A stretch of DNA of 37,430 bases. Source: a virus (taxonomy: Duplodnaviria; Caudoviricetes). The stretch covers positions 1 through 37,430 of IMG/VR virus record IMGVR_UViG_3300024988_000205; one strand, given 5' to 3'. Below are positions 1-9,517 of this stretch, one piece after another. Under the pieces are notes generated by a model that saw nothing but the letters and a program-made list of their open reading frames with translations, ran no database searches and was not told the DNA's origin. Position numbers and translations under genes: made by a program. Position 1 is the stretch's first letter. Every line of letters starts with the position of its first letter.

Positions 1-951
1 CTATTTGGCTTTGAACGCCCGCAGCATCGCGTCGCGCTGCTGTTCGATCTGCATGTGCGCGTAGCGCTCGGTCGTTTTCACGCTGCTGTGGCCGAGGATC
101 TTGGACACGGTGAAGAGGTCGGCGCCGGTGGCGATGAGGATGCTGGCGCAGCTGTGGCGGAGGTCGTGGAAGTTGACGTCGGGCATGCCGGCGTCTTCGC
201 GCGCGCGGCGCCAGGCGCTTTTGATTCCTTCGATGCCGACTTCGAGCGGGAAGTGCTTTAGCCACGGGCGCAGGGCCGGCACGATGGGCACGGTGCGGGT
301 GCGCAGGGTCTTGGTGTTGCCGGCGTGGATGATGAGGCTGTCGCGGCCGATGTCTTCGCGGCGCAGTTTGACGATTTCGCCGCGCCTAGCGCCGGTGAGC
401 AGGGCGGTCCAGATGGCGGCCTGCACCGGCGTGCTGCAATGGCTGGCGATGGACTGCACCTGGTCGAGGCTGAGGTAGGTGCTGCGGGCGTTGTTCTCGG
501 GCAGGCGCTTGACGTGAGCGCTGTAATCGACGGGGATGAGTCCGCGCTCCCAGGCGAGGCGCAGGGCTTTCTTGAGGGTGCCGAGGCTGCGGTTGATGGT
601 GCCGGCGGCGTAGTGGCCGGCCATGTCCTTGACGATGTGGGCGGCAGCCTGGCGGGCCTGACTGGCGCGGTATTTTTCGAGCCAGAGCGCGATGCGGCGG
701 GCGTGGTCGAGGGCGGTCTTGGTGCTGCGCAGGGTTTCGGCGTGGGCGACGTACAGGCTGATGACTTCGGTAAGGCGCGGGTCGCTGGGGATACGCGGCG
801 TTTTGGCGACGGCGAGCGCGGCGCGCAGGTCGGCTTCTAGCTGCTTGGCAGCACCCGCAGTTGCGTCTTGCGGCAGGATGCGGTGAACTCGGCGCCCGTC
901 GACCATAATGCCGACGTGCCGGCGTCCCTTCTTGTCTGTCCAGATTGACAT
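1..951 (-). CDS. int: Phage tyrosine integrase
   Basis: Likely start MSIWTDKKGRRH (ATG at 951). Catalytic motifs LLTGARRGE, HDLRH and LGHSSVKTTERY. Confidence 0.95.
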   Translation of the reverse strand: MSIWTDKKGRRHVGIMVDGRRVHRILPQDATAGAAKQLEADLRAALAVAKTPRIPSDPRLTEVISLYVAHAETLRSTKTALDHARRIALWLEKYRASQARQAAAHIVKDMAGHYAAGTINRSLGTLKKALRLAWERGLIPVDYSAHVKRLPENNARSTYLSLDQVQSIASHCSTPVQAAIWTALLTGARRGEIVKLRREDIGRDSLIIHAGNTKTLRTRTVPIVPALRPWLKHFPLEVGIEGIKSAWRRAREDAGMPDVNFHDLRHSCASILIATGADLFTVSKILGHSSVKTTERYAHMQIEQQRDAMLRAFKAK

Positions 952-1118
952 GGTTGATTCTCCCGCAGCCAGGCTTTGCACTCTTCCAGATCGTAGCGCT
1001 TGGCCCTGATCCCGACGGGAGTATAGGGCATGCCGTCCAGTTCGAGCCGCCGGACGGTGGACTCGCTGATGGTGAGGGCCGCGCAGAGCTGCTGGCGGGT
1101 GAGGGCAGGGGTGGTCAT
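837..1118 (-). CDS. xis: Excisionase-like winged-HTH protein
   Basis: [31 protein letters not shown]...RYDLEECKAWL is a Xis/AlpA-type pattern. It lies directly upstream of int and overlaps it. Confidence 0.8.
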   Translation of the reverse strand: MTTPALTRQQLCAALTISESTVRRLELDGMPYTPVGIRAKRYDLEECKAWLRENQPCQSGQTRRDAGTSALWSTGAEFTASCRKTQLRVLPSS

Positions 1119-1579
1119 GCCGGCACGCGCTCCAGGATGTGGCCTTGCGCAGCCCGGCGTCGCGCTTCGAACAGGGCGTCGCGGCATTCGGCGCGCGGCA
1201 CGTTGGCGATCTGCTGTTCGTGCAGTTCGGCGCCGCGGTTGATGGCCTGCATTTCGCTGCCGGAGAATCCCCATTTACCGGTGCGCTCGTGGCGGGCCTT
1301 GATCTCCATGAGGGCGTCCTGCAGGGTGTAGACGACGTCGATGTATTCGGGGCCGACGTCGCGTTCGCACAGGATGAGGCTGACGTTGGCCATGGCGGCG
1401 AAGGTCCAGAAGTCATCCTCGATGCCGAGTCCGTTGCGCATGCGCAGGATGCCGGTGTGGATGGCCTTGCCAAGGTCGTCGAGCTGGTCGCGGGTCATGC
1501 CGTGCTGCATGGCGATGGTGTTCTGCCAGGCGAGGGGGTCGGCTACCCAGCGGGTTCTGCGCTTGCCGTGTTTTCTCAT
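1115..1579 (-). CDS. Hypothetical phage early protein
   Basis: 154-aa ORF with ATGA overlaps to both intI upstream and xis downstream. Confidence 0.8.
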
Positions 1580-2598
1580 GCTGTGATCCTGTCAAGCGGG
1601 CTGGTGGCGCCGCACGCGCCCCGGTTGAGTACGTGGGTATAGATCATGGTGGTGCTCACATCGCTGTGGCCGAGCAGTTCCTGCACGGTGCGGATGTCCG
1701 ATCCGGTTTCGAGCAGGTGGGTGGCAAAGCTGTGGCGTAGGGTGTGCGGATGCACCAGTTTGTGGATTCTGGCTGCTTGAGCAGCGGCCTTTACAGCGCG
1801 CTGGATATTGCGCTCGTTCCAGTGGTGGCGGCGCACGCTGCCGCTACGCGGATCGGTGCTGTAGCTCGGCGCGGCGAAGACGTATTGCCATGCCCACTCG
1901 GACGCGGCGCGCGGGTATTTGCGGGCGATGGCGTCTGGCAGCTCGACGTCGGCGTGGCCGGTGGATAGGTCGAGGTTGTGCCAGCGGAGCCGCTCGTCGA
2001 TGTGCTGTATCAGGTCTTCAACCAAGCTGGCCGGCAGCATGGTGACGCGGTCCTTGTTGCCCTTGCCTTCTCGAATGGTGATGAGGCGGCGCGCGAGGTC
2101 GACGTCCTTGATGCGCAGCCGCAGGCACTCCTTGATGCGCATGCCGGTGCCGTAGAGCAGCTTGATGATGAGGCCGTTGGTGCCGCTGACGTGTGCGAGC
2201 AGGGCGGCGATCTCCTGCTGGGTGAGCACGCTGGGCAGGCGCTTGGCCGTTCGGGCACGGGTGATGCCGTCGAGCCATGGCAGATCCACGCGGAGCACGT
2301 CGCGGTACAGAAACAGGATGGCGTGCATGGCTTGGTTCTGGGTGCTGGCGGAGACGTTGCGCTCGGTGGCCAGCGCGGAGAGGAATGCCTCGACCTCGGG
2401 CGCGCCCATCTCGGCCGGGTGGCGCTTGCCATGGAACAGGATGAAGCGCTTGGCCCAGTGCAGGTAGGTCTTCTCGGTGGAGTAGCTGTAGTGCCTGGTG
2501 CGGATAACCGCGCGCATCTGCTCCAGCAGCTTGGGCTTGGGCTGGGTGCCGTTCAACACTTGCGACGGTGTCGCGTTTGGTTTTTCGAGTGTGTGCAT
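1576..2598 (-). CDS. intI: Integron integrase (IntI family tyrosine recombinase)
   Basis: N-terminal [14 protein letters not shown]...[31 protein letters not shown]. Catalytic motifs [25 protein letters not shown] and [14 protein letters not shown]. Integron-specific insertion [10 protein letters not shown]...WQYVF...[18 protein letters not shown] upstream. Confidence 0.97.
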
Positions 2599-2627
2599 TG
2601 GCGCGGGTCTCCGTTGGGTGGGGTGGA

Positions 2628-2665
2628 GTTATGCGACAGGGGGTGTCGGAGAATTTAAGTTGGGC
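2628..2665 (+). other. attI: attI recombination site (predicted crossover G2659/T2660)
   Basis: GTTGGGC core at 2659-2665 next to the intI 5' end, after AT-rich GAATTTAA. GTTGGGCAC matches the reverse complement of the attC1 R'' region (GTTGGACAC) at 8/9. Confidence 0.75.
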
Positions 2666-2898
2666 ACCAGCAGTTCGGCCAGCTTTGTGTTGCCGTCGCC
2701 GCCGTAGGGGATGCACTCGCCGTCCCATCCGTGGCGCAGGTCGTCAACCTTCAACACCGCGCCATCCACTTCAATGCGCGGGTTCCAGTCGTCGCTGAAG
2801 ATGTCGAGCTTGTAGCTATCTGCCACTTGGTGCGCGTGTGATTCATCCTCGGCCATCACCACGCCGTAGGTGGTTATTTCAACCATGTAGAGTTTCAT
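2629..2898 (-). CDS. Cassette 1 ORF, acidic hypothetical protein (89 aa)
   Basis: MKLYMVEITTYGVV... with GGAG RBS 7 nt upstream. It reads through attI and stops at 2629-2631. Confidence 0.8.
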   Translation of the reverse strand: MKLYMVEITTYGVVMAEDESHAHQVADSYKLDIFSDDWNPRIEVDGAVLKVDDLRHGWDGECIPYGGDGNTKLAELLVPNLNSPTPPVA

Positions 2899-2916
2899 GT
2901 CTTCGCTCCAGTCCGT

Positions 2917-3003
2917 GTCCAACAATCCGGTCGAGCCGAGGCCCGCCAGCGTCTTTAATCCTTGCCTGATTCCGTAAGGCCCGGCTCACCGCAAGCGTTA
3001 GAT
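2917..3003 (+). other. attC: attC site 1 (87 bp)
   Basis: R'' GTCCAAC, 5-nt spacer, L'' GGT(C)GAGCCG pairing with L' CGGCTCACC (one extrahelical base), 6-nt spacer, R' GTTAGAT. Confidence 0.92.
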
Positions 3004-3296
3004 GACTCATCACCGAGCCTCACGCGGGCTTCCCATGCTCGCCCGTCGTCAGTCCAGCTTGCCGCCATCGCAGCGCAGCACTCCGAGCACCAGCGGTAGC
3101 TCATCAGCGAGCCGTCGAACACAGCCGCCAGCAGTCGCACGCGCTCGCCCGGCACAATCTCTTGCCGGCACATGCCGCAGGTTCCACCCTTGCGCGCGGT
3201 GCCAATCTTGTCCTTCAGCACCTTGTCGCCAGGGCTTCCGAAATCACCCTCGAAGGGGTTCGTTTTCAAACACTCAGCTTCGTCAAACGTCGTCAT
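2955..3296 (-). CDS. Cassette 2 ORF, putative zinc-binding protein (113 aa)
   Basis: ARKGGTCGMCRQEIVPGE...WCSECC has two CxxC pairs. It stops inside the attC1 loop. Confidence 0.8.
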   Translation of the reverse strand: MTTFDEAECLKTNPFEGDFGSPGDKVLKDKIGTARKGGTCGMCRQEIVPGERVRLLAAVFDGSLMSYRWCSECCAAMAASWTDDGRAWEARVRLGDESSNACGEPGLTESGKD

Positions 3297-3360
3297 CTAA
3301 CCCTCCGTTCGTTCGGACGCTCCGCCTGCGGCTCCGCGCCGCACAACTTGAGCGTTATGC
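3295..3360 (+). other. attC: attC site 2 (66 bp)
   Basis: R'' ATCTAAC (exact complement of the preceding GTTAGAT), spacer CCTCC, L'' GTT(C)GTTCGG imperfectly pairing with L' CCGCACAAC, 6-nt spacer, R' GTTATGC. Confidence 0.92.
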
Positions 3361-3911
3361 CCCTTGCACCGTGCGGCCAGCTCAACCAGCCATTCCGCCA
3401 GCGCCGGGGGCGTGTGCTCCCGCTCTGCCTTCGTTATGTGCGGGCGGTAGTCCTCGCGTTTCCGGCTCTGCACCACGTAGGCCGCCTCGCCCATCACGTA
3501 GGGCAGCGCCGGTATCTCGCCAGGTGCGCAGCCGACCACATAAAACCATGTGGCCTTTTCTGCCTTGTGGCCCCACCACTTCTGCGGCGCAGCCAGCGTC
3601 CATCCTCCGAGCTGGTCGCGTTCGCCAGGTCGCGGTAGTTTCTGCGCATCCCAAAGCGTCGAGCCGGCCGGGTGTTCGAGCACGCCGCCGAATTCCCGCA
3701 CCAGTGCCACAGCCAGGCGCCCGAGGTTCCTTTCGTCCGGCCTCGGGTTTGCAAAGGCCCGTAGCCGGCCCCAGGCTCGGCAAGGAGGGTGCGCTACCAC
3801 AGGCCACGGCCCGTCGTAGGTGCGCGCGTCTCGCTCGGCATCAAACACGTCCACGTCGGAAAGTTCCTTGTAGTGGCTGTCGGCGCGTGCGAAGAGGATG
3901 GCTACGGTCAT
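3297..3911 (-). CDS. Cassette 3 ORF, putative DNA cytosine methyltransferase-like protein (204 aa)
   Basis: VVAHPPC (motif IV PC-like), VLEHP (motif VI-like) and KATW. A canonical FxGxGG motif I is not evident. It reads through the whole of attC2. Confidence 0.6.
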   Translation of the reverse strand: MTVAILFARADSHYKELSDVDVFDAERDARTYDGPWPVVAHPPCRAWGRLRAFANPRPDERNLGRLAVALVREFGGVLEHPAGSTLWDAQKLPRPGERDQLGGWTLAAPQKWWGHKAEKATWFYVVGCAPGEIPALPYVMGEAAYVVQSRKREDYRPHITKAEREHTPPALAEWLVELAARCKGHNAQVVRRGAAGGASERTEG

Positions 3912-3931
3912 CGCGTTTCTCAATCGTCGGG

Positions 3932-4001
3932 GCACAACCCGTCGTGCGAAGGGACGCGCCGCGATGAAGCTGCATCGCGCCCCTCCACTCTGTCATTGAG
4001 T
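3932..4001 (+). other. attC: attC site 3, degenerate R' (ATT instead of GTT)
   Basis: R'' GCACAAC (GGGGCACAAC matches the upstream junction GTTATGCCCC at 9/10 as reverse complement), L'' GTG(C)GAAGGG, L' CCCTCCAC, 6-nt spacer, then ATTGAGT. Confidence 0.8.
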
Positions 4002-4008
4002 GGCCCGC

Positions 4009-4266
4009 TCACGCCGCACCCTTCTTCATATACCGCCGATGCACGTACATGCTGGCGGTGATTCCAAACGGGCCGCCGAGCATGTAGGCGGCGACCTCGC
4101 TAAAGCCGGCTTCCGGCATCAGCCGGTAGAGCGCCAGGTGGCCGGCGCCGATTAGAAAGCTGGTGAGGAATGCCGCCACGTAGTGCCCCTGGTTGACGTT
4201 CTGGCTCTGGAAGCCGAGGGCGAACACGCTCATGAAGCAGCTGGCGAAGAGGAGGAGTTCGTTCAC
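4009..4266 (-). CDS. Small multi-pass membrane protein
   Basis: 85 aa with about three hydrophobic segments and a basic C-terminus. Confidence 0.75.
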   Translation of the reverse strand: MNELLLFASCFMSVFALGFQSQNVNQGHYVAAFLTSFLIGAGHLALYRLMPEAGFSEVAAYMLGGPFGITASMYVHRRYMKKGAA

Positions 4267-4281
4267 GACGGCCGCCCTTGG

Positions 4282-5142
4282 TCAGCTGTTGGCGAACGGG
4301 TTGCCGAAGAAGAACGGGGTCCCGGTCTTCTCCTTGATCTGGCCGATCAGGGTCGAGGTGGCATCTTCGAGCACCTTGTCCTGGCGGATCAGTTCAAACC
4401 AGAAGGTCAACTTGCCGTCGCGTACGCGGTAGCGCAGCCGGGCGTCGATGCGATAGGCGTCGCCGTTCCAGAAGACCTGCAGGCCGATGCTGAAGCGGTC
4501 GAAGACCTGCATTTTCTGGATGGTCTGGGCGTCGTCATCCTGGGTGAAACTCATCTGCACGCCGCCGCTCTGCAGCCGGATCGCGCTTTTGAAGCGCATG
4601 TCCTGGTTGGCCTCGAAGGTGAGTGCCATTTCGAGCATCTGCGCGCCGGTGGGGCTGCCGTCGACGCTGGCGATGTCCTTGAGGTTTTCTTCGATGAACG
4701 AAGCGAAGTCGGGTTGGTTGAATGGCTGTTTGTTCTTGCCCACCCAGCGGTTCCACTCCTCCGAAAACTCGGGCGAGAAGCTGGCCTTGTGGTCGCGCCA
4801 GGCTGCTGCGTCCTTGTCCTCGCCGTGGTCGTTGAGGATGCCGGTGAACTTGACGTCGCCAGCCTTGTAATTGGCGATGCACCAGATCGTGCTGCTGTTG
4901 AGCGATCCGTGGCGCTTGATGTAGTCGACGAAGCTGTCGGCATCGTTGAGCTCGATGGTCGCTTTCTTGCGGCGCGGGGCGTCGAGCAGCTTTTCTTCGT
5001 CGCGCTCTTCCAGCTTCCAGCCCGGGGGCATGGCAATGCGCTTGATGTGCGACTCGGGTTTGCTGCCGATCTCGGTCGGCGCCTTCATCTCGCGGGACAG
5101 GGTCTGCGCGAGGTTTTCGGTTTCGGTGCTTGCGAGTTCCAT
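4282..5142 (-). CDS. DUF2303 / YfdQ-like phage protein
   Basis: Motifs DADSFVDYIKRH, FASFIEENLKDI, FKSAIRLQSG and ARLRYR typical of this family. Confidence 0.8.
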   Translation of the reverse strand: MELASTETENLAQTLSREMKAPTEIGSKPESHIKRIAMPPGWKLEERDEEKLLDAPRRKKATIELNDADSFVDYIKRHGSLNSSTIWCIANYKAGDVKFTGILNDHGEDKDAAAWRDHKASFSPEFSEEWNRWVGKNKQPFNQPDFASFIEENLKDIASVDGSPTGAQMLEMALTFEANQDMRFKSAIRLQSGGVQMSFTQDDDAQTIQKMQVFDRFSIGLQVFWNGDAYRIDARLRYRVRDGKLTFWFELIRQDKVLEDATSTLIGQIKEKTGTPFFFGNPFANS

Positions 5143-5151
5143 CGTGGTTCC

Positions 5152-5496
5152 TTATGCGGATTTGAGTTGTGTGGGCGCGGCCTCGGAGGCGGACGGCACG
5201 CTCTTGAGATCCAGCTTTTGCTGGTGTGGATCGTCGGCGACCAGGTTGCCCTCGGGGGTGGCGAACAGCATCGCTTCCATCGGCTCGTCGGCGGGCTTGG
5301 TCACCTTGACCTTGCCGGTTAGGATCATGGCGCCGCCGCGCGTGGCCTTCTTCACGTTGATGCTCAGGTCGATGCGCCCGGACTTGCCGGACGAATCGAC
5401 CGCCGCCACCAGCTCGGCGAGTTTGTCGCTGGCGGTGTCGATGAACACGCCGCCGCCGATATGGCGGAGGGTGTCGGTGATGGGTCTTGCTGACAT
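5152..5496 (-). CDS. YfdP-like phage protein (usual partner of DUF2303)
   Basis: MSARPITDTLRHIGGG...LAELVAAVDSSGKSG...FATPEGNLVADDPHQQKL, with AAGGAG RBS. Confidence 0.75.
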   Translation of the reverse strand: MSARPITDTLRHIGGGVFIDTASDKLAELVAAVDSSGKSGRIDLSINVKKATRGGAMILTGKVKVTKPADEPMEAMLFATPEGNLVADDPHQQKLDLKSVPSASEAAPTQLKSA

Positions 5497-5546
5497 TTTG
5501 ATACTCCTTTTACGGCCTGGCTCGATGGGGCAGGCTTCCCGGGTGG

Positions 5547-6122
5547 TCAAGCGGTTTGCTCCAGGCGTTCGGCGACGGCGAGCGTGGTCAGCTCGCGGAT
5601 GAGGTCGGCGTGTCGTTCCTTCAACGCCGGCAGGCCAGCCAGGACTTCCTGGCGCCTGGTCGCTGGGTCGAGCTTGTCGCGGGCGCAGGTGTGGGCAATT
5701 GAGTGGATGGCGTCGCGAGCCTTGGTATGCAAGCTATTTCCAACGGGGCTGCTGCGATCCCGGAACGACCGGAGCTCGAATCCGTAAAACGGTACGCGCT
5801 CGGCTGTTGCAATCAGCGCGATGCAGTCCGCCACGTCGGCATACAGCAGCGTGGCGAATTCCTTCCTGGCCGCCGTGAGGCGCTTCTCGTAGTCTTTCCT
5901 GATCGCGTCGGCCTCGCGGGCATCCTTCGCGAGCGAGGCGATCACCTTGTCCATCGCCGTGAGTGCGGCGCGGATGGCGGTCGACTCGCCTGCCGTGAGG
6001 CCGTAGTCGTTCGGGTCGATCTTGCGCAGGGCGGTGGCTGTGCGCGCCATGTGGGCCTTGCGCGCTGCGATCACGGCGCCACCGTCGTGGAGCGCCTGGC
6101 TTTTCTGGAGGTCGCTCAGCAT
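5547..6122 (-). CDS. Hypothetical helical protein
   Basis: MLSDLQKSQALHDGG..., 191 aa, starting 2 nt after the upstream stop. Confidence 0.7.
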   Translation of the reverse strand: MLSDLQKSQALHDGGAVIAARKAHMARTATALRKIDPNDYGLTAGESTAIRAALTAMDKVIASLAKDAREADAIRKDYEKRLTAARKEFATLLYADVADCIALIATAERVPFYGFELRSFRDRSSPVGNSLHTKARDAIHSIAHTCARDKLDPATRRQEVLAGLPALKERHADLIRELTTLAVAERLEQTA

Positions 6123-6124
6123 GA

Positions 6125-6358
6125 TCAGGCCGCCATTTCCTCGGCCGCCATCGGTTGCATGCCAAGTTGATGCGCATGCGCCACATGCGCCAGGGTGCGC
6201 AGGTCGTCGACGATCGGCGAGCCCGGGGTGTAGACCGAGGCGTTGACGACCATGGAAGACAGCATCTGCGTGAGGCTGTGCCAGCGCCCGATGCTGGGCC
6301 GGGCCAGCGCCTCCTGCCAGCGCAGCGAGACGATGGAGGGGATGACGATGGGCTGCAT
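6125..6358 (-). CDS. Hypothetical protein
   Basis: MQPIVIPSIVSLRWQEALARP..., 77 aa, TGATG-coupled to the upstream ORF. Confidence 0.65.
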   Translation of the reverse strand: MQPIVIPSIVSLRWQEALARPSIGRWHSLTQMLSSMVVNASVYTPGSPIVDDLRTLAHVAHAHQLGMQPMAAEEMAA

Positions 6359-6504
6359 CACACCACTCCGGCGGCGGCCAGCAGCACCATGACGGCCATT
6401 CCGGCCAGGCACACCGCAGCGATGATGGTGTCTGCGCGTTCGGCCTGCTCGGCCCGGCGCTGGGCGTTGTATGCACTCAGTTCGTTTCTGGTTCCGAAGT
6501 TCAT
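6358..6504 (-). CDS. 48-aa protein with C-terminal transmembrane helix (first gene of the pL operon; not in the ORF track)
   Basis: MNFGTRNELSAYNAQRRAEQAERADTIIAAVCLAGMAVMVLLAAAGVV*, with GGGAGAGGG RBS; its stop overlaps the next ATG. Confidence 0.7.
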   Translation of the reverse strand: MNFGTRNELSAYNAQRRAEQAERADTIIAAVCLAGMAVMVLLAAAGVV

Positions 6505-6666
6505 TGCGATTCCCTCTCCCGTGGTTAATCGGTTCACTGCTCCCCAACATCACCCTGCGTCTTCGTGAGGCTCCTAGCCGGTTGCCCGACCGTGGGATGG
6601 GTCCAGGCCCATCACGTCTGCCGCTTGGGGTGCGCAACGGGGCGCGCGGCTACGGGGTATGTCGTT

Positions 6667-6707
6667 ACTTTATAACCATGGTTCTCAATCTGTCAAGAAC
6701 CAAGGTT
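6667..6707 (-). promoter_or_regulatory. pL promoter with operators OL1/OL2
   Basis: Minus-strand TTGACA (6691-6696) and TAAAGT (6667-6672). Palindromes AACCATGGTT (6674-6683) and AACCAAGGTT (6698-6707) are 24 bp apart. Confidence 0.85.
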
Positions 6708-6765
6708 ATATTTTGTGGCACAATGAAGCCGCGCCCGATGTGGGCGAGTCGAAAAGGAGTCAGGG

Positions 6766-7071
6766 ATGGATCAGAAAGAACTGGCGGAAGCGGGGGCGCC
6801 TGGCCTGCTGTACCGGCGCGAGGATGGCGTGGAGATCCCGCTTGATCAGGGTAATGTGTGGGTGTGGCGCATGGGCCCGTCTGGCCGCTGGATGTTGGCG
6901 CGATACATGGATGGCATGATCGAAGAAAGCTATGCGCCTATGGAAGACGCTGAGCTTGGGATCGCGCTCGCCGCAATCAGTCGTGGTTATCAACCACCAC
7001 GTACCCTTCATCGTCTAGAGACACTGTCTGGGCGAATTCCGCCTGAAGGTGGCTCGGTGCCCGAGGCTTGA
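6766..7071 (+). CDS. Hypothetical protein (immunity-region accessory)
   Basis: 101-aa ORF with AAGGAG upstream. It overlaps the convergent ORF 6977-7180. Confidence 0.5.
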   Translation: MDQKELAEAGAPGLLYRREDGVEIPLDQGNVWVWRMGPSGRWMLARYMDGMIEESYAPMEDAELGIALAAISRGYQPPRTLHRLETLSGRIPPEGGSVPEA

Positions 7072-7180
7072 ACCGCCTGAACACGAGCCCGCCGAAATCG
7101 ACGGTGTAGTGCGCTGGATAGTTGCGAAGTTCGTCCAGCAGCTCGCCGACGGTGATGGTGGGGTGGGGTTTGTTGGTCAT
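6977..7180 (-). CDS. Hypothetical protein
   Basis: MTNKPHPTITVGELLDELRNYP..., 67 aa, ATGA-coupled to the upstream lipoprotein gene. Confidence 0.6.
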   Translation of the reverse strand: MTNKPHPTITVGELLDELRNYPAHYTVDFGGLVFRRFKPRAPSHLQAEFAQTVSLDDEGYVVVDNHD

Positions 7181-7572
7181 GGCGTCGCCGGTGGGCGGTA
7201 GTTGCTTGAGCCGATCAGCGATGCGCCTTGCTCGGTGGTCGCGCTCGATGTGGACTGGAAGACGCCGTTTGTGTCGAGGCTGAAGGTGACTTCGTTGGTG
7301 CGCACGTCGCTGCCGCCCACCAGGCCGCCGATGAAGGGGATGAAGGTTTCGCCGCGCACCCGGACGTCGACGTGTTGATAGACGATTTCGGTGGTGCCGT
7401 CCGACTTGTTTCTCACCACGTTGGGGCGGCCCAGGGCGGCCTCGATCTCGGCGCGCGTGCTCTTGCCGGGCTGGAAGGCGCGGGCCTGGTCGGGCTTGAC
7501 ATCCATGCCGGCGGACATGCAGCCGGCAAGCACTGTGGCCGCGATGATTGTAGTGGCTAGAGTCGTTTTCAT
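7177..7572 (-). CDS. Lipoprotein, SmpA/BamE-like pattern
   Basis: Lipobox VLAG-C; PGKSTRAEIEAALGRP resembles the SmpA/OmlA motif. Confidence 0.75.
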   Translation of the reverse strand: MKTTLATTIIAATVLAGCMSAGMDVKPDQARAFQPGKSTRAEIEAALGRPNVVRNKSDGTTEIVYQHVDVRVRGETFIPFIGGLVGGSDVRTNEVTFSLDTNGVFQSTSSATTEQGASLIGSSNYRPPATP

Positions 7573-7967
7573 GGCTTTGCTGCCGCCACGGTGCGGTTGA
7601 AGTCCAGCGCCTTCTCGTACTGGTCGGGGATACAGCCAATCCAGTTGTCACACCATACCGTGACCAGCATCCGGTACTTGCCGCCACCCAGTGGCTCTTT
7701 CGTTACCCTGGCTGCAAGATACGGGCTGCTGTCGGCTGGGTTGTAGGTTTCGATCAGGACGTTCGTCGCCGTCTGGATTTTGTAGCGGGCGTTGTGAACC
7801 ACCCATAGCTGAGCGGCTTCCCATTTGACGTTGCAGTCGTCGGCGCCGGCGCAGGTCGGGATCGTCCGGTTGATCTCGTTGAGTACGGCTTGGCGTTGCG
7901 GGTCGGCTGTGGTGGCGCAGCCGCTCAATGTGGCGGCGATCAGCACTGCCGTCAGTGTGTTCTTCAT
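7569..7967 (-). CDS. Lipoprotein of unknown function
   Basis: MKNTLTAVLIAATLSG-C lipobox, four further cysteines, GAGGG RBS. Confidence 0.8.
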   Translation of the reverse strand: MKNTLTAVLIAATLSGCATTADPQRQAVLNEINRTIPTCAGADDCNVKWEAAQLWVVHNARYKIQTATNVLIETYNPADSSPYLAARVTKEPLGGGKYRMLVTVWCDNWIGCIPDQYEKALDFNRTVAAAKP

Positions 7968-8036
7968 GATGTTTCCCTCTCCCCTGTTTATTCGAATTGA
8001 AGCTCCAACTGTACCGCGAACATCAACACTCTGGCG

Positions 8037-8387
8037 CTACGCTGGTTTCTTGGTTTTGGTGCTGAGTTCCTTAAGTGCATCGCCAGCCTGAACGAGCCTT
8101 TGCACGTCGTAATCGGCAAGGTCCTGGCATACCTGCACCAGGTGCTTGATCCTTTCGTCGTGCACGTAAAGGCCGTCAACCATATCGCCCTGCCCCTCTG
8201 CCAGCCACATTGCCCTGACGCCGCATGCCTCGGCGAACTGCGCTGTGAACTCCGAGCCCGTGGCGTCGCTTCTTTCCAGCTTGGAGATGTTCTCCTGCGT
8301 GCACACGTTATTGATCCTATCCGCCAGCTGCTGCTGGGTCAGTTTGGCGTGGACGCGTGCCGTGCGTAAGCGTTCTCCGTATTTCAT
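8037..8387 (-). CDS. cI: CI-like repressor (XRE HTH, 116 aa, no peptidase domain)
   Basis: MKYGERLRTARVHAKLTQQQLADRI...QENISKLER...CGVRAMWLAEGQGDM, divergent from cro. Confidence 0.88.
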   Translation of the reverse strand: MKYGERLRTARVHAKLTQQQLADRINNVCTQENISKLERSDATGSEFTAQFAEACGVRAMWLAEGQGDMVDGLYVHDERIKHLVQVCQDLADYDVQRLVQAGDALKELSTKTKKPA

Positions 8388-8394
8388 GGCTTGG

Positions 8395-8466
8395 AACCTA
8401 TAACCACGGTCATAAACAGTCAAAGAACTGTAGTTGTTGACATCAGTAGAACCTTGGTTATATTCT
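8395..8466. promoter_or_regulatory. pRM/pR divergent promoters with operators OR3/OR2/OR1
   Basis: Operators AACCACGGTC (8402), AACTGTAGTT (8426) and AACCTTGGTT (8450) at 24-bp spacing. pR: TTGACA 8437-8442 with TATTCT 8461-8466. pRM on the minus strand: TTGACT (8418-8423), 17 nt, TAGGTT (8395-8400). Confidence 0.85.
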
Positions 8467-8472
8467 GAGGGC

Positions 8473-8919
8473 ATGAGCATGGAATCTCTCCAACAGGCAG
8501 TCGATTTGGCACACGGCCAGGCGCAACTGGCGCGCGGCATTCGCGAGCGAATCCCCGGGTCGAAAATCAGCCAGCCACATGTGTACAAGTGGCTTAACAG
8601 CCCCAACCCCGATCAAATGCCACCGGCCGACGTGGTGCTTGCGATCGCGGACTTTCTTGAGTACCGGATGACGCCGCACGATCTGCGGCCCGACCTGTAC
8701 CCCAACCCCGGCGATGCTCTGCCGTCCCATATGGCTCCGGTATGCAAGTGCGCTTCGACCTTCGGGGAATTCGGCGAGCCGCGCTCGGGTGTCGAGCGCC
8801 GCGATGGCGACCGCCGCCAAGTGAGCGATCCCGACTTTGGTGATTTCGGCGAGCCGCGCGACGGGGAGCGGCGGGAGGAAGACCGCCGGCGCAGCGACGG
8901 CGATGAGGCCGCCGCGTGA
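8473..8919 (+). CDS. cro: Cro/YdaS-like regulator with repeated charged C-terminal extension
   Basis: GQAQLARGI...ISQPHVYKWL...TPHDLRPDLYPNP is a YdaS/Cro signature. First gene after pR. Confidence 0.85.
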   Translation: MSMESLQQAVDLAHGQAQLARGIRERIPGSKISQPHVYKWLNSPNPDQMPPADVVLAIADFLEYRMTPHDLRPDLYPNPGDALPSHMAPVCKCASTFGEFGEPRSGVERRDGDRRQVSDPDFGDFGEPRDGERREEDRRRSDGDEAAA

Positions 8920-9012
8920 GCAAGCGCGGCTGGTGGGAACGCTTGTTCGGGCGCGGCGATGAAGCCGAGATGTCGCGTGTGCTGTCGATTTCGACGCGCA
9001 AGGCGAATGATC

Positions 9013-9357
9013 TCAGGGCGCTGCGGGACGATCCGAATCCGGCCGCTCCAGCTTCGCGCGTATATCGCTCGACTGAAGAATCGCAGCAGAGAATACGTCG
9101 AGTGCTCGACGCGCTGCGGCCCGAAACTCGTCGTCCGCTTTGTCGAGCTTGCTGTCGATGCTGTCGTATGCGATCACGAGTACGCTGCGGATCATCGGCT
9201 CGGGGGCAGAAATGAGCGGCAGCATGGATAGGCATAGCTGCTCCATGCCGATGAGCAGGGCCGCGCGCTCGTCGCTGGTTTTTTGCGTCTCGATGAGTTC
9301 CGAGGAGAGTGTCCGCACGGCGTTCTCCAGGCGCTTGAGCCGTTCTTCGGTTTCCAT
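9013..9357 (-). CDS. Hypothetical protein, antisense to the pR operon
   Basis: METEERLKRLENAVR..., 114 aa, with GAAAGGAA RBS and TAGAAT -10 at 9396-9401 (minus strand). Confidence 0.65.
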   Translation of the reverse strand: METEERLKRLENAVRTLSSELIETQKTSDERAALLIGMEQLCLSMLPLISAPEPMIRSVLVIAYDSIDSKLDKADDEFRAAARRALDVFSAAILQSSDIRAKLERPDSDRPAAP

Positions 9358-9486
9358 GTCCGTTCCTTTCGGTGTGTGGTTTGGTGAGACTTGCCATTCT
9401 ACCGAGCCTGGAACGGGCGCCTTTTCCGCCCTGGCAGATGGCGGTGCTGTTCGTAATCTGCCGCATGCAGTCCTCCTCCAATCCTT

Positions 9487-9517
9487 CCCCGGCGCTGTCC
9501 TGGCCGGGGCTTTTTTT
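9487..9517 (+). terminator. Intrinsic terminator (tR1-like)
   Basis: CCCCGGC stem, 9-nt loop, GCCGGGG, then CTTTTTTT, upstream of cII. Confidence 0.8.

Follow-up and report, generated by a model that had tools for sequence, protein, structure and literature searches.

The stretch of DNA analysed here (the window, 37,430 bases) probably contains an integron that resides in a phage: it closes a leftward run of prophage genes, and its cassettes carry bottom-strand genes of phage families that are likely transcribed, along with intI, xis and int, from the phage promoter pL. In its relevant passages, PMC5027507 treats the sense orientation of cassette genes to attC, which makes them readable from the promoter Pc, as central to integrons. 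The phage group to which this locus belongs keeps the recombination geometry yet reverses the genes, uncoupling the two.

The window comes from contig C171 of genome G000 and covers most of the prophage, which is inserted at a tRNA-Val gene just outside the window, with a 14-nt repeat at each end and host genes beyond. Searches of the window for tRNAs and for Rfam families returned no match. From left to right, PHROG matches identify the phage integrase, an excisionase-like gene, phrog_20828, IntI, three small ORFs, a holin-like gene, DUF2303 and phrog_204 and then, further to the right, cI-like, cro-like, CII-like and primase genes. Head, tail and lysis genes follow (long ORFs, assigned by eye). 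Between pL and cI (6766-7967) lie a plus-strand ORF of 101 aa, phrog_21180 and two lipoprotein-like genes. We take this position to correspond to that of rex in lambda, and exclusion functions are possible for these genes. The holin-like gene (4009-4266) is upstream of the array here and directly downstream of intI in five relatives (L010-L013 and L026; L047 is also listed in this comparison), so the integron platform occupies different points of the gene run in relatives. Contig depth over 900-7000 is about 620 in run X1, about 1200 in X3 and below 20 in X4; the high values in X1 and X3 may reflect abundant or induced phage. Feature coordinates are collected in Table 1.

Table 1. Features of the phage-resident integron and its surroundings (window coordinates)
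Feature	Position	Strand	Basis or remark
phrog_20828 ORF, excisionase-like gene, phage integrase	1..1579	-	Downstream part of the leftward run; PHROG
intI, integron integrase, 340 aa, intact	1576..2598	-	TIGR02249; alignment to 2A3V
attI	2627..2666	+	Crossover G/TT at 2659/2660, AAG/TTGGGC
ORF1, 89 aa	2629..2898	-	Crosses junction (Pro-Asn), stops in attI
attC1	2917..3003	+	GTCCAAC..GTTAGAT; upstream of ORF1
ORF2, 113 aa, cysteine-rich	2955..3296	-	phrog_19515/7314; stops in attC1
attC2	3295..3360	+	ATCTAAC..GTTATGC; upstream of ORF2
ORF3, 204 aa	3297..3911	-	phrog_12600; runs through whole attC2
attC3	3932..4001	+	GCACAAC..ATTGAGT; final site of array
Holin-like, DUF2303, phrog_204, three small ORFs	4009..6504	-	Early-left genes upstream of array, without attC
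pL-like promoter, -35 TTGACA, -10 TAAAGT	6667..6709	-	Sigma-70 site 6696-6667, 10/12; operators 6672-6685, 6696-6709
cI-like repressor gene and pR region	8037..8466		Two operator copies (8400, 8448)

The integrase is intact. It scores 465.7 bits against TIGR02249 (cut-off 265), aligns end to end with VchIntIA (2A3V, E 6.5e-88), includes the IntI-specific insertion and keeps every catalytic residue (R154, K179, H285, R288, H311 and Y320). As in regular integrons, attI sits beside the 5' end of intI and has a G/TTRRRY-type crossover. About 60 nt separate this crossover from the intI start; spacers of this kind have a median AT content of 0.47, compared with 0.58 in bacteria. No CTG-N10-CAG box was found upstream of intI among the close viral relatives listed. 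Of the 42 loci in the phage integrase group, 34 show the attI motif, ahead of differing first cassettes. A second GTTA motif within it, at 2627, is the source of the ORF1 stop codon, and in 19 of the 34 loci having the motif the phage attI ends the reading frame at codon 11. Positions 2627-2650 also hold a short inverted repeat (CGACA-N5-TGTCG) kept in many group members; the RNA of this region folds better than 200 of 200 shuffles, and the repeat could be an integrase-binding or regulatory element. At its other end, the intI stop codon overlaps the ATG of the next gene. Overlap with a downstream ORF is moderately enriched in viral loci (20/40, versus 10/78 in bacteria), and when the ORF is not demanded the stop/start overlap does not discriminate (22/40 versus 24/79).

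Sites of the attC type were located with a covariance model trained on 27 sites, two from the window (attC2 and attC3) and 25 from other viral loci; it was used in place of an earlier hand-made finder that overlooked attC3. Across all 37,430 bases the model returns exactly three sites, including attC1, which was outside the training set (32.9 bits, E 6e-6). The model prefers short sites and detects too few of the long ones, which makes every count of attC-bearing genes a minimum. Across the 27 sites, 81% of cells are paired, against 63% after shuffling and 38-54% after sliding (0 of 500 shuffles as high), a figure inflated by the relatedness of the sequences and by drawing the structure from those same sequences. 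The bottom strand of all three window sites folds better than the top, with z of only -1.5 to -1.9. Extrahelical G and T on the minus strand identify it as the bottom strand, and thus the R''-L''-L'-R' architecture is opposite to intI, as in regular integrons. The original prediction that the sites have normal geometry relative to a minus-strand intI therefore holds for all three, by extrahelical bases and by the covariance model. The R' core of attC3 is ATT in place of GTT, which likely weakens this site. The span first proposed for the feature, 2629 to 3938, leaves out most of attC3. Near-identical copies of the window's sites head other genes elsewhere: attC1 copies (94-96% identical) precede unrelated genes in L027, L028 and L281, and attC3 copies (98%), in L022-L024, precede a DHH phosphoesterase and one further gene, which is unrelated.

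Crossovers at 2659/2660, 2997/2998, 3354/3355 and 3995/3996 delimit cassette 1 (2660-2997), cassette 2 (2998-3354) and cassette 3 (3355-3995). Sequence comparison indicates that these move as crossover-bounded units, as expected of a regular integron. Cassette 2 is 90% identical to its counterpart in L158 over all 357 nt between crossovers, with differing neighbours on both sides, and is placed directly at an attI-like site in L155; cassette 3 matches L076 at 82.5% identity over 640 of 641 nt. Cassette 2 begins with GTTAGAT, and the R'' of attC2 (ATCTAAC) complements these seven bases exactly. Because attC is nearly palindromic, the array can also be read as genes each followed by a downstream site. 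The swap boundaries of cassettes 2 (against L158) and 3 (against L076) agree in placing each attC upstream of its own gene, as had been proposed. Among the contigs of four DNA runs over 900-7000, which lose rare variants, no joint at a cassette crossover was found in the matches listed. One joint in run X6 (1226-4034) was set aside, the sequence between its ends not being given.

All three cassette ORFs lie on the minus strand, as originally proposed, and are real genes. Changes among their homologues fall mainly at third codon positions (62/105 for ORF1, 210/290 for ORF2 and 867/1298 for ORF3), and more codon changes are synonymous than non-synonymous (44:36, 196:52 and 691:301, respectively). 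The sense arrangement, a top-strand ORF followed by attC, is absent: the bottom strand encodes all three ORFs, and attC precedes each of them. A plus-strand ORF of 321 aa at 3002-3967 was a competing candidate. We rejected it as a shadow frame, since stops interrupt it in 9 of 10 ORF3 and 3 of 7 ORF2 homologues (12 of 17 overall) and it has no PHROG or Pfam match.

The reversed layout extends well beyond this locus. We compared 74 viral loci found with the window's IntI with a bacterial control made of the best 80 of 588 matches, from 4 of 64 parts of GTDB. Upstream of intI, 40 of the 74 viral loci contain 146 model matches, all in normal geometry. Judged by ORF length, 34 viral cassette intervals are antisense, 3 sense and 55 ambiguous (n = 92), against 1, 69 and 17 in bacteria (n = 87). 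A codon-score tie-break on the same intervals gives 76 antisense, 10 sense and 6 ambiguous in viruses against 10, 71 and 6 in bacteria, where the minority calls (10 sense viral, 10 antisense bacterial) include some errors and some real mixed arrays. A length-independent measure points the same way: a Shine-Dalgarno sequence and start codon just past the site on the bottom strand accompany 157 of 250 viral sites and 10 of 135 bacterial sites. The host provides its own control, as the chromosomal cassettes of G000 (C2 and C29) are sense. These clusters (C2:5880-7617 and C29:1948-4626) lie apart from the intI on C67, whose array ends at the contig edge.

The window's integrase belongs to a group of viral integrases. 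In a FastTree phylogeny of 131 integrases, the window IntI falls with 42 viral loci and with none of the GTDB-sample sequences (support 0.982), while 14 viral integrases fall outside its group; an IQ-TREE analysis of 55 sequences, with groups picked from the first tree, gives the window and viral branch an SH-aLRT of 99. Two further members, both absent from the trees, are in prophages of sequenced genomes, G004 (88% identical) and G025 (65%). The G004 prophage resembles that of the window in its phage integrase (90%) and in intI (84% at the DNA level), and holds four different backward cassettes, two of them encoding methyltransferases. Phage-resident integrons with backward cassettes are widespread, with a betaproteobacterial phage IntI group that has its own attI. 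The layout tracks the phage setting and not one enzyme lineage, given that the viral contig L056 combines a Gallionella-like, bacterial-type IntI with five backward cassettes, which suggests a second recruitment of the integron platform by a phage. A set of 50,697 phage records contained no IntI more than 60% identical to the window's. Virus Rctr41k (KX853513; L284:4680-5678) has an IntI-like gene (45%, annotated as xerD) among co-oriented small genes, with palindromes repeated upstream but no attC model match.

Several variants were seen at single loci. Sites of the same polarity lie downstream of intI, beyond the attI array, in L039 (7538-8966) and L054 (9163-9236), and the ORFs between those of L039 are backward. 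In L155 (425-510), an attI-like site is followed by the ORF2 cassette and then another gene, with intI absent from the locus, possibly the way in which integrase-less phage arrays originate. Three viral IntIs outside the group have downstream attC sites of the other polarity, of the inverted-integrase type (L038:7471-7565, L073:3755-3814 and L065:7872-7961); the ORFs beside attC in L038 and L073 appear sense.

Two alternative histories for the array bear on these comparisons. A host chromosomal integron could have been captured by imprecise excision and its cassettes inverted through top-strand recombination; parts of the literature describe captured host integrons in Vibrio and Shewanella phages (PMC9892861) and the inversion of cassettes by top-strand recombination (PMC5027507). 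However, top-strand insertion flips gene and attC together, whereas here attC is normal and the genes alone are reversed. The host's second IntI, on C67, is only 59% identical to that of the prophage and lies elsewhere in the tree, and the cargo comes from phage families that mostly lack attC. Capture followed by inversion is therefore largely refuted, and we regard it as highly improbable. Alternatively, the array could be a relic of off-target insertions by host integrases at GTT-like sites close to phage gene ends, by the attG route, with the phage intI and attI as passengers that do not shuffle cassettes. Insertion at attG is described in sections of 10.1101/2022.09.11.507474, many backward arrays have no intI inside the 3 kb flanks examined, and both the attI-like site of L155 without intI behind it and the backward cassettes downstream of intI in L039 would fit. 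Against this stand the intact IntI, the attI kept across the group ahead of differing first cassettes and the ORF3-family genes, which occupy attI in L119 and L019 and the third position in the window. We consider a passive relic improbable, and an integron that resides in the phage and works there accounts better for these observations.

The expression of such cassettes was originally attributed to pL at the far end of the array, and the anatomy fits this proposal. The operator ATAACCWWGGTTCT occurs exactly at 6672, 6696 and 8448, with a three-mismatch copy at 8400; matches number 8 against 1.4 expected, and 0 of 100 shuffles scored as high. As the two operators over the 6696-6667 site recur at pR, the site is likely pL. 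Between 6504 and 1, every ORF taken to be a gene is encoded by the minus strand, and gaps stay below 100 nt, which completes a lambdoid early-left layout (a repressor-controlled pL, operators in common with pR and genes co-oriented to xis/int). Two possible objections were checked by a scan of 1-9500 that found neither an internal promoter nor an intrinsic terminator on the minus strand; like the plus-strand search, it relied on a simple sigma-70 consensus and is blind to Rho-dependent stops, antitermination and activator-dependent (CII-type) promoters. No plus-strand sigma-70 consensus or Pc-like site was detected in 1-8400, and a plus-strand Pc could not read bottom-strand ORFs anyway. This arrangement makes it likely that the cassettes are transcribed from pL.

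Another possibility is that the integron is real, but that its cassettes and intI are driven, in the lysogen for instance, by promoters that are internal or depend on an activator, in place of a pL 2.7 kb upstream. The restriction of the scan to the sigma-70 consensus, the CII-like gene of the prophage, the separate ribosome-binding site of each cassette and a strong terminator-like hairpin near the left end of the run in the related G004 prophage are all compatible with this. It is nevertheless unlikely given the lack of an internal consensus promoter, the short gaps between genes, the abutting ORF3 and ORF2 (TAG-ATG) and the mere 60 nt or so between the attI crossover and the intI start, where bacterial spacers are richer in AT. 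Transcription from pL remains our preferred reading.

Reliance on pL had also been expected to reverse the expression gradient. The geometric part of this stands: a newly inserted cassette lands farthest from pL, just ahead of intI, so that older cassettes are not pushed away from the promoter. An actual gradient is doubtful. In class 1 arrays, promoter distance was negligible and translation of upstream cassettes mattered, according to the relevant portion of Carvalho et al. (10.1101/2024.03.26.586746), and on this basis read-through and coupling probably outweigh any gradient. Orientation may also matter for recombination, as a bottom strand on the lagging template favours attC folding (as discussed in part of PMC8946536). 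Should the replication origin be near the primase gene, the bottom strand would serve as lagging template for a fork moving leftward.

The ends of the genes suggest how translation could cross the sites. None of ORF1-ORF3 has a stop codon in its own cassette; AAC is in frame at each junction (encoding PN, SN and HN) and the ORFs terminate in attI, attC1 and attC2, respectively, the TAG of ORF3 lying in the R'' of attC2 and followed directly by the ATG of ORF2, likewise in this R''. Homologues align up to the junction Asn, after which their tails are unrelated. We surveyed 152 antisense ORFs of viral loci, which fall into 123 families. Read-through with in-frame AAC characterizes 61 families, whereas 25 terminate at the TAA of the core and 36 ahead of the junction (mostly by 8 bases); a single family crosses it in a different frame. 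A stop in the AAC frame, within the site or no more than 30 bases past it, is available at 94% of viral (n = 250) and 81% of bacterial sites (n = 129). In-frame AAC is frequent in any case, at 49% in cassette bodies and 82% in the window's genes (triplets of the YY-AAC type); being frequent in GC-rich genes, it makes part of the frame bias a matter of codon usage. Overall, these sequence patterns lend moderate support to a rule of in-frame read-through.

The cargo is phage-like. PHROG matches were obtained for 29 of 76 viral antisense ORFs and for 6 of 70 bacterial sense ORFs, and the viral cargo includes five DNA methyltransferases, two Mom-like proteins, two PAPS reductases, two DHH phosphoesterases and one exonuclease. 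ORF3 is predicted to have a small C5-cytosine methyltransferase-like fold. Its PPC motif is invariant in all 34 aligned sequences (alignment A2, made from 34 of 44 initial rows after two with internal stops and 8 divergent or partial ones were dropped), and its structure model (pLDDT 92.5) has M.HaeIII and DNMT3 as best Foldseek matches, which are weak (E 2e-4, TM 0.45). No Pfam methylase match was found, and an Atlas search with ORF3 returned only hypothetical clusters, save for a methylase cluster at rank 29 (score 0.90).

We surveyed homologues of the three ORFs for a reverse-oriented attC upstream, as the original prediction had suggested, by applying the attC model to 95 of 103 loci (8 near-duplicates were omitted). 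An adjoining match was found for 20 of 72 homologues of ORF3, 6 of 11 of ORF2 and 3 of 11 of ORF1, always on the coding strand, as were all 129 model matches in these loci. The query gene sets the orientation of such loci, and the survey is thus no independent test of orientation. Homologues without a match (52 of 72 for ORF3) resemble plain phage genes with short tails of their own. This pattern suggests that phages are where resident genes and reusable attC sites are combined into cassettes, which might proceed by successive attG-type insertions near gene ends or by exchange at R''.

How cassettes are first made is an open question of long standing. One view, which we put forward tentatively and hold to be possible, is that temperate phages are cassette factories running their own integron lineage, with cassettes shuffled under pL and leaking silently into hosts. 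Early genes would gain an attC in front and a GTT junction at a dispensable 3' end, giving backward, stop-less cassettes, which could be stored silently in host chromosomal integrons until another phage recruits them. If true, near-identical gene pairs with and without attC would record cassette genesis under way. Matched material for a before-and-after comparison is at hand, in that ORF3 occurs both as a plain gene and as a cassette and attC copies head unrelated genes.

Backward cassettes of the phage type had been imagined to reside in host integrons, and one such case came to light. G020, a complete genome of the same genus, has a chromosomal integron beside a tadA-like gene, the one that also adjoins the host C67 IntI. 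In its array (L281:5077-10610), sense cassettes flank about six backward, phage-type ones (ORFs read by eye). A backward HNH cassette there has a backward counterpart in the viral locus L157, with 89% DNA identity from one junction to the other and 93% protein identity, and one attC is 94% identical to attC1 of the window. The match with L157 shows traffic between phage and chromosomal integrons. Single backward-cassette candidates were also seen in L187 and L241. In host arrays, such cassettes are prone to mis-annotation or to being read as lacking an ORF.

Taken as a mechanism, the resident integron would operate as follows. Upon infection or induction, the repressor would leave pL and a single transcript would span first the cargo, then intI. 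Cassettes would be excised by IntI (attC x attC) and newcomers inserted at attI through the ordinary bottom-strand reaction, which suffices, so that no new chemistry is required. The strand-selection rule that aims bacterial cassettes away from Pc would thus aim phage cassettes along the phage operon. Each unit of the mRNA would present, in order, a hairpin, a ribosome-binding site, a gene and a junction, and stop-less read-through may keep ribosomes moving across the hairpin. As a gene often terminates within the bottom strand of the site that follows, each rearrangement would alter its C-terminal tail. With a cargo of variable early genes (DNA methyltransferases, Mom-like proteins, PAPS reductase and nucleases), the benefit is likely a fast exchange of modification and counter-defence genes.

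The closest known systems share parts of this organization. The sedentary chromosomal integrons of Betaproteobacteria, as far as they are treated in 10.1101/030866, have the same IntI family, attI by the intI 5' end and short single-gene cassettes, and attC structure and strand are common to both: trained on phage sites, the attC model still detects 138 sites in bacterial loci. The regular type, in the portion of that article dealing with IntegronFinder, also has intI opposite to attC. Unlike in chromosomal integrons, the genes here occupy the bottom strand and have attC upstream, and no Pc was found. Both intI and the cargo point the same way within a run of phage genes; the cargo is of phage families, and many of its genes have no stop of their own. 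In the inverted-integrase integrons of the Treponema type, likewise outlined in a section of 10.1101/030866, intI is also co-oriented with the cassette genes; there, however, it is intI that is turned around relative to attC while the genes are sense, whereas here only the genes are turned around and the arrangement of intI and attC is normal. The attG insertions and SALINs of Loot et al. (10.1101/2022.09.11.507474) offer a possible route by which attC could reach the ends of phage genes, although the pertinent sections concern existing cassettes entering bacterial chromosomes and not resident genes becoming cassettes.

A literature search, with subscription papers, supplements and figures largely outside its scope, found only Qi et al. 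2023 (PMC9892861) to be devoted to integrons within phage genomes. In its relevant passages, attC arrays and complete integrons in phages are described with methyltransferase cargo, phage attC sites recombine with attI1 and divergent attC sites are noted in one phage. Its complete integrons, as presented in those passages, are captured host or class 1 integrons, in contrast to the phage integrase lineage found here, and the passages describe neither a reversed-gene layout nor such a lineage. We re-checked the TJE1 CALIN and found it canonical (attC bottom strands minus, ORFs plus). The relevant passages of Weinberg 2017 (PMC5737381), PMC13366799, PMC13323075, PMC8618304 and PMC8946536 contain no reversed layout either, and the backward-cassette phage integron is apparently undescribed in print. 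To the systems above, the present locus adds a phage IntI group with its attI, a sense control in the same host, stop-less read-through and a matched cassette in a host array.
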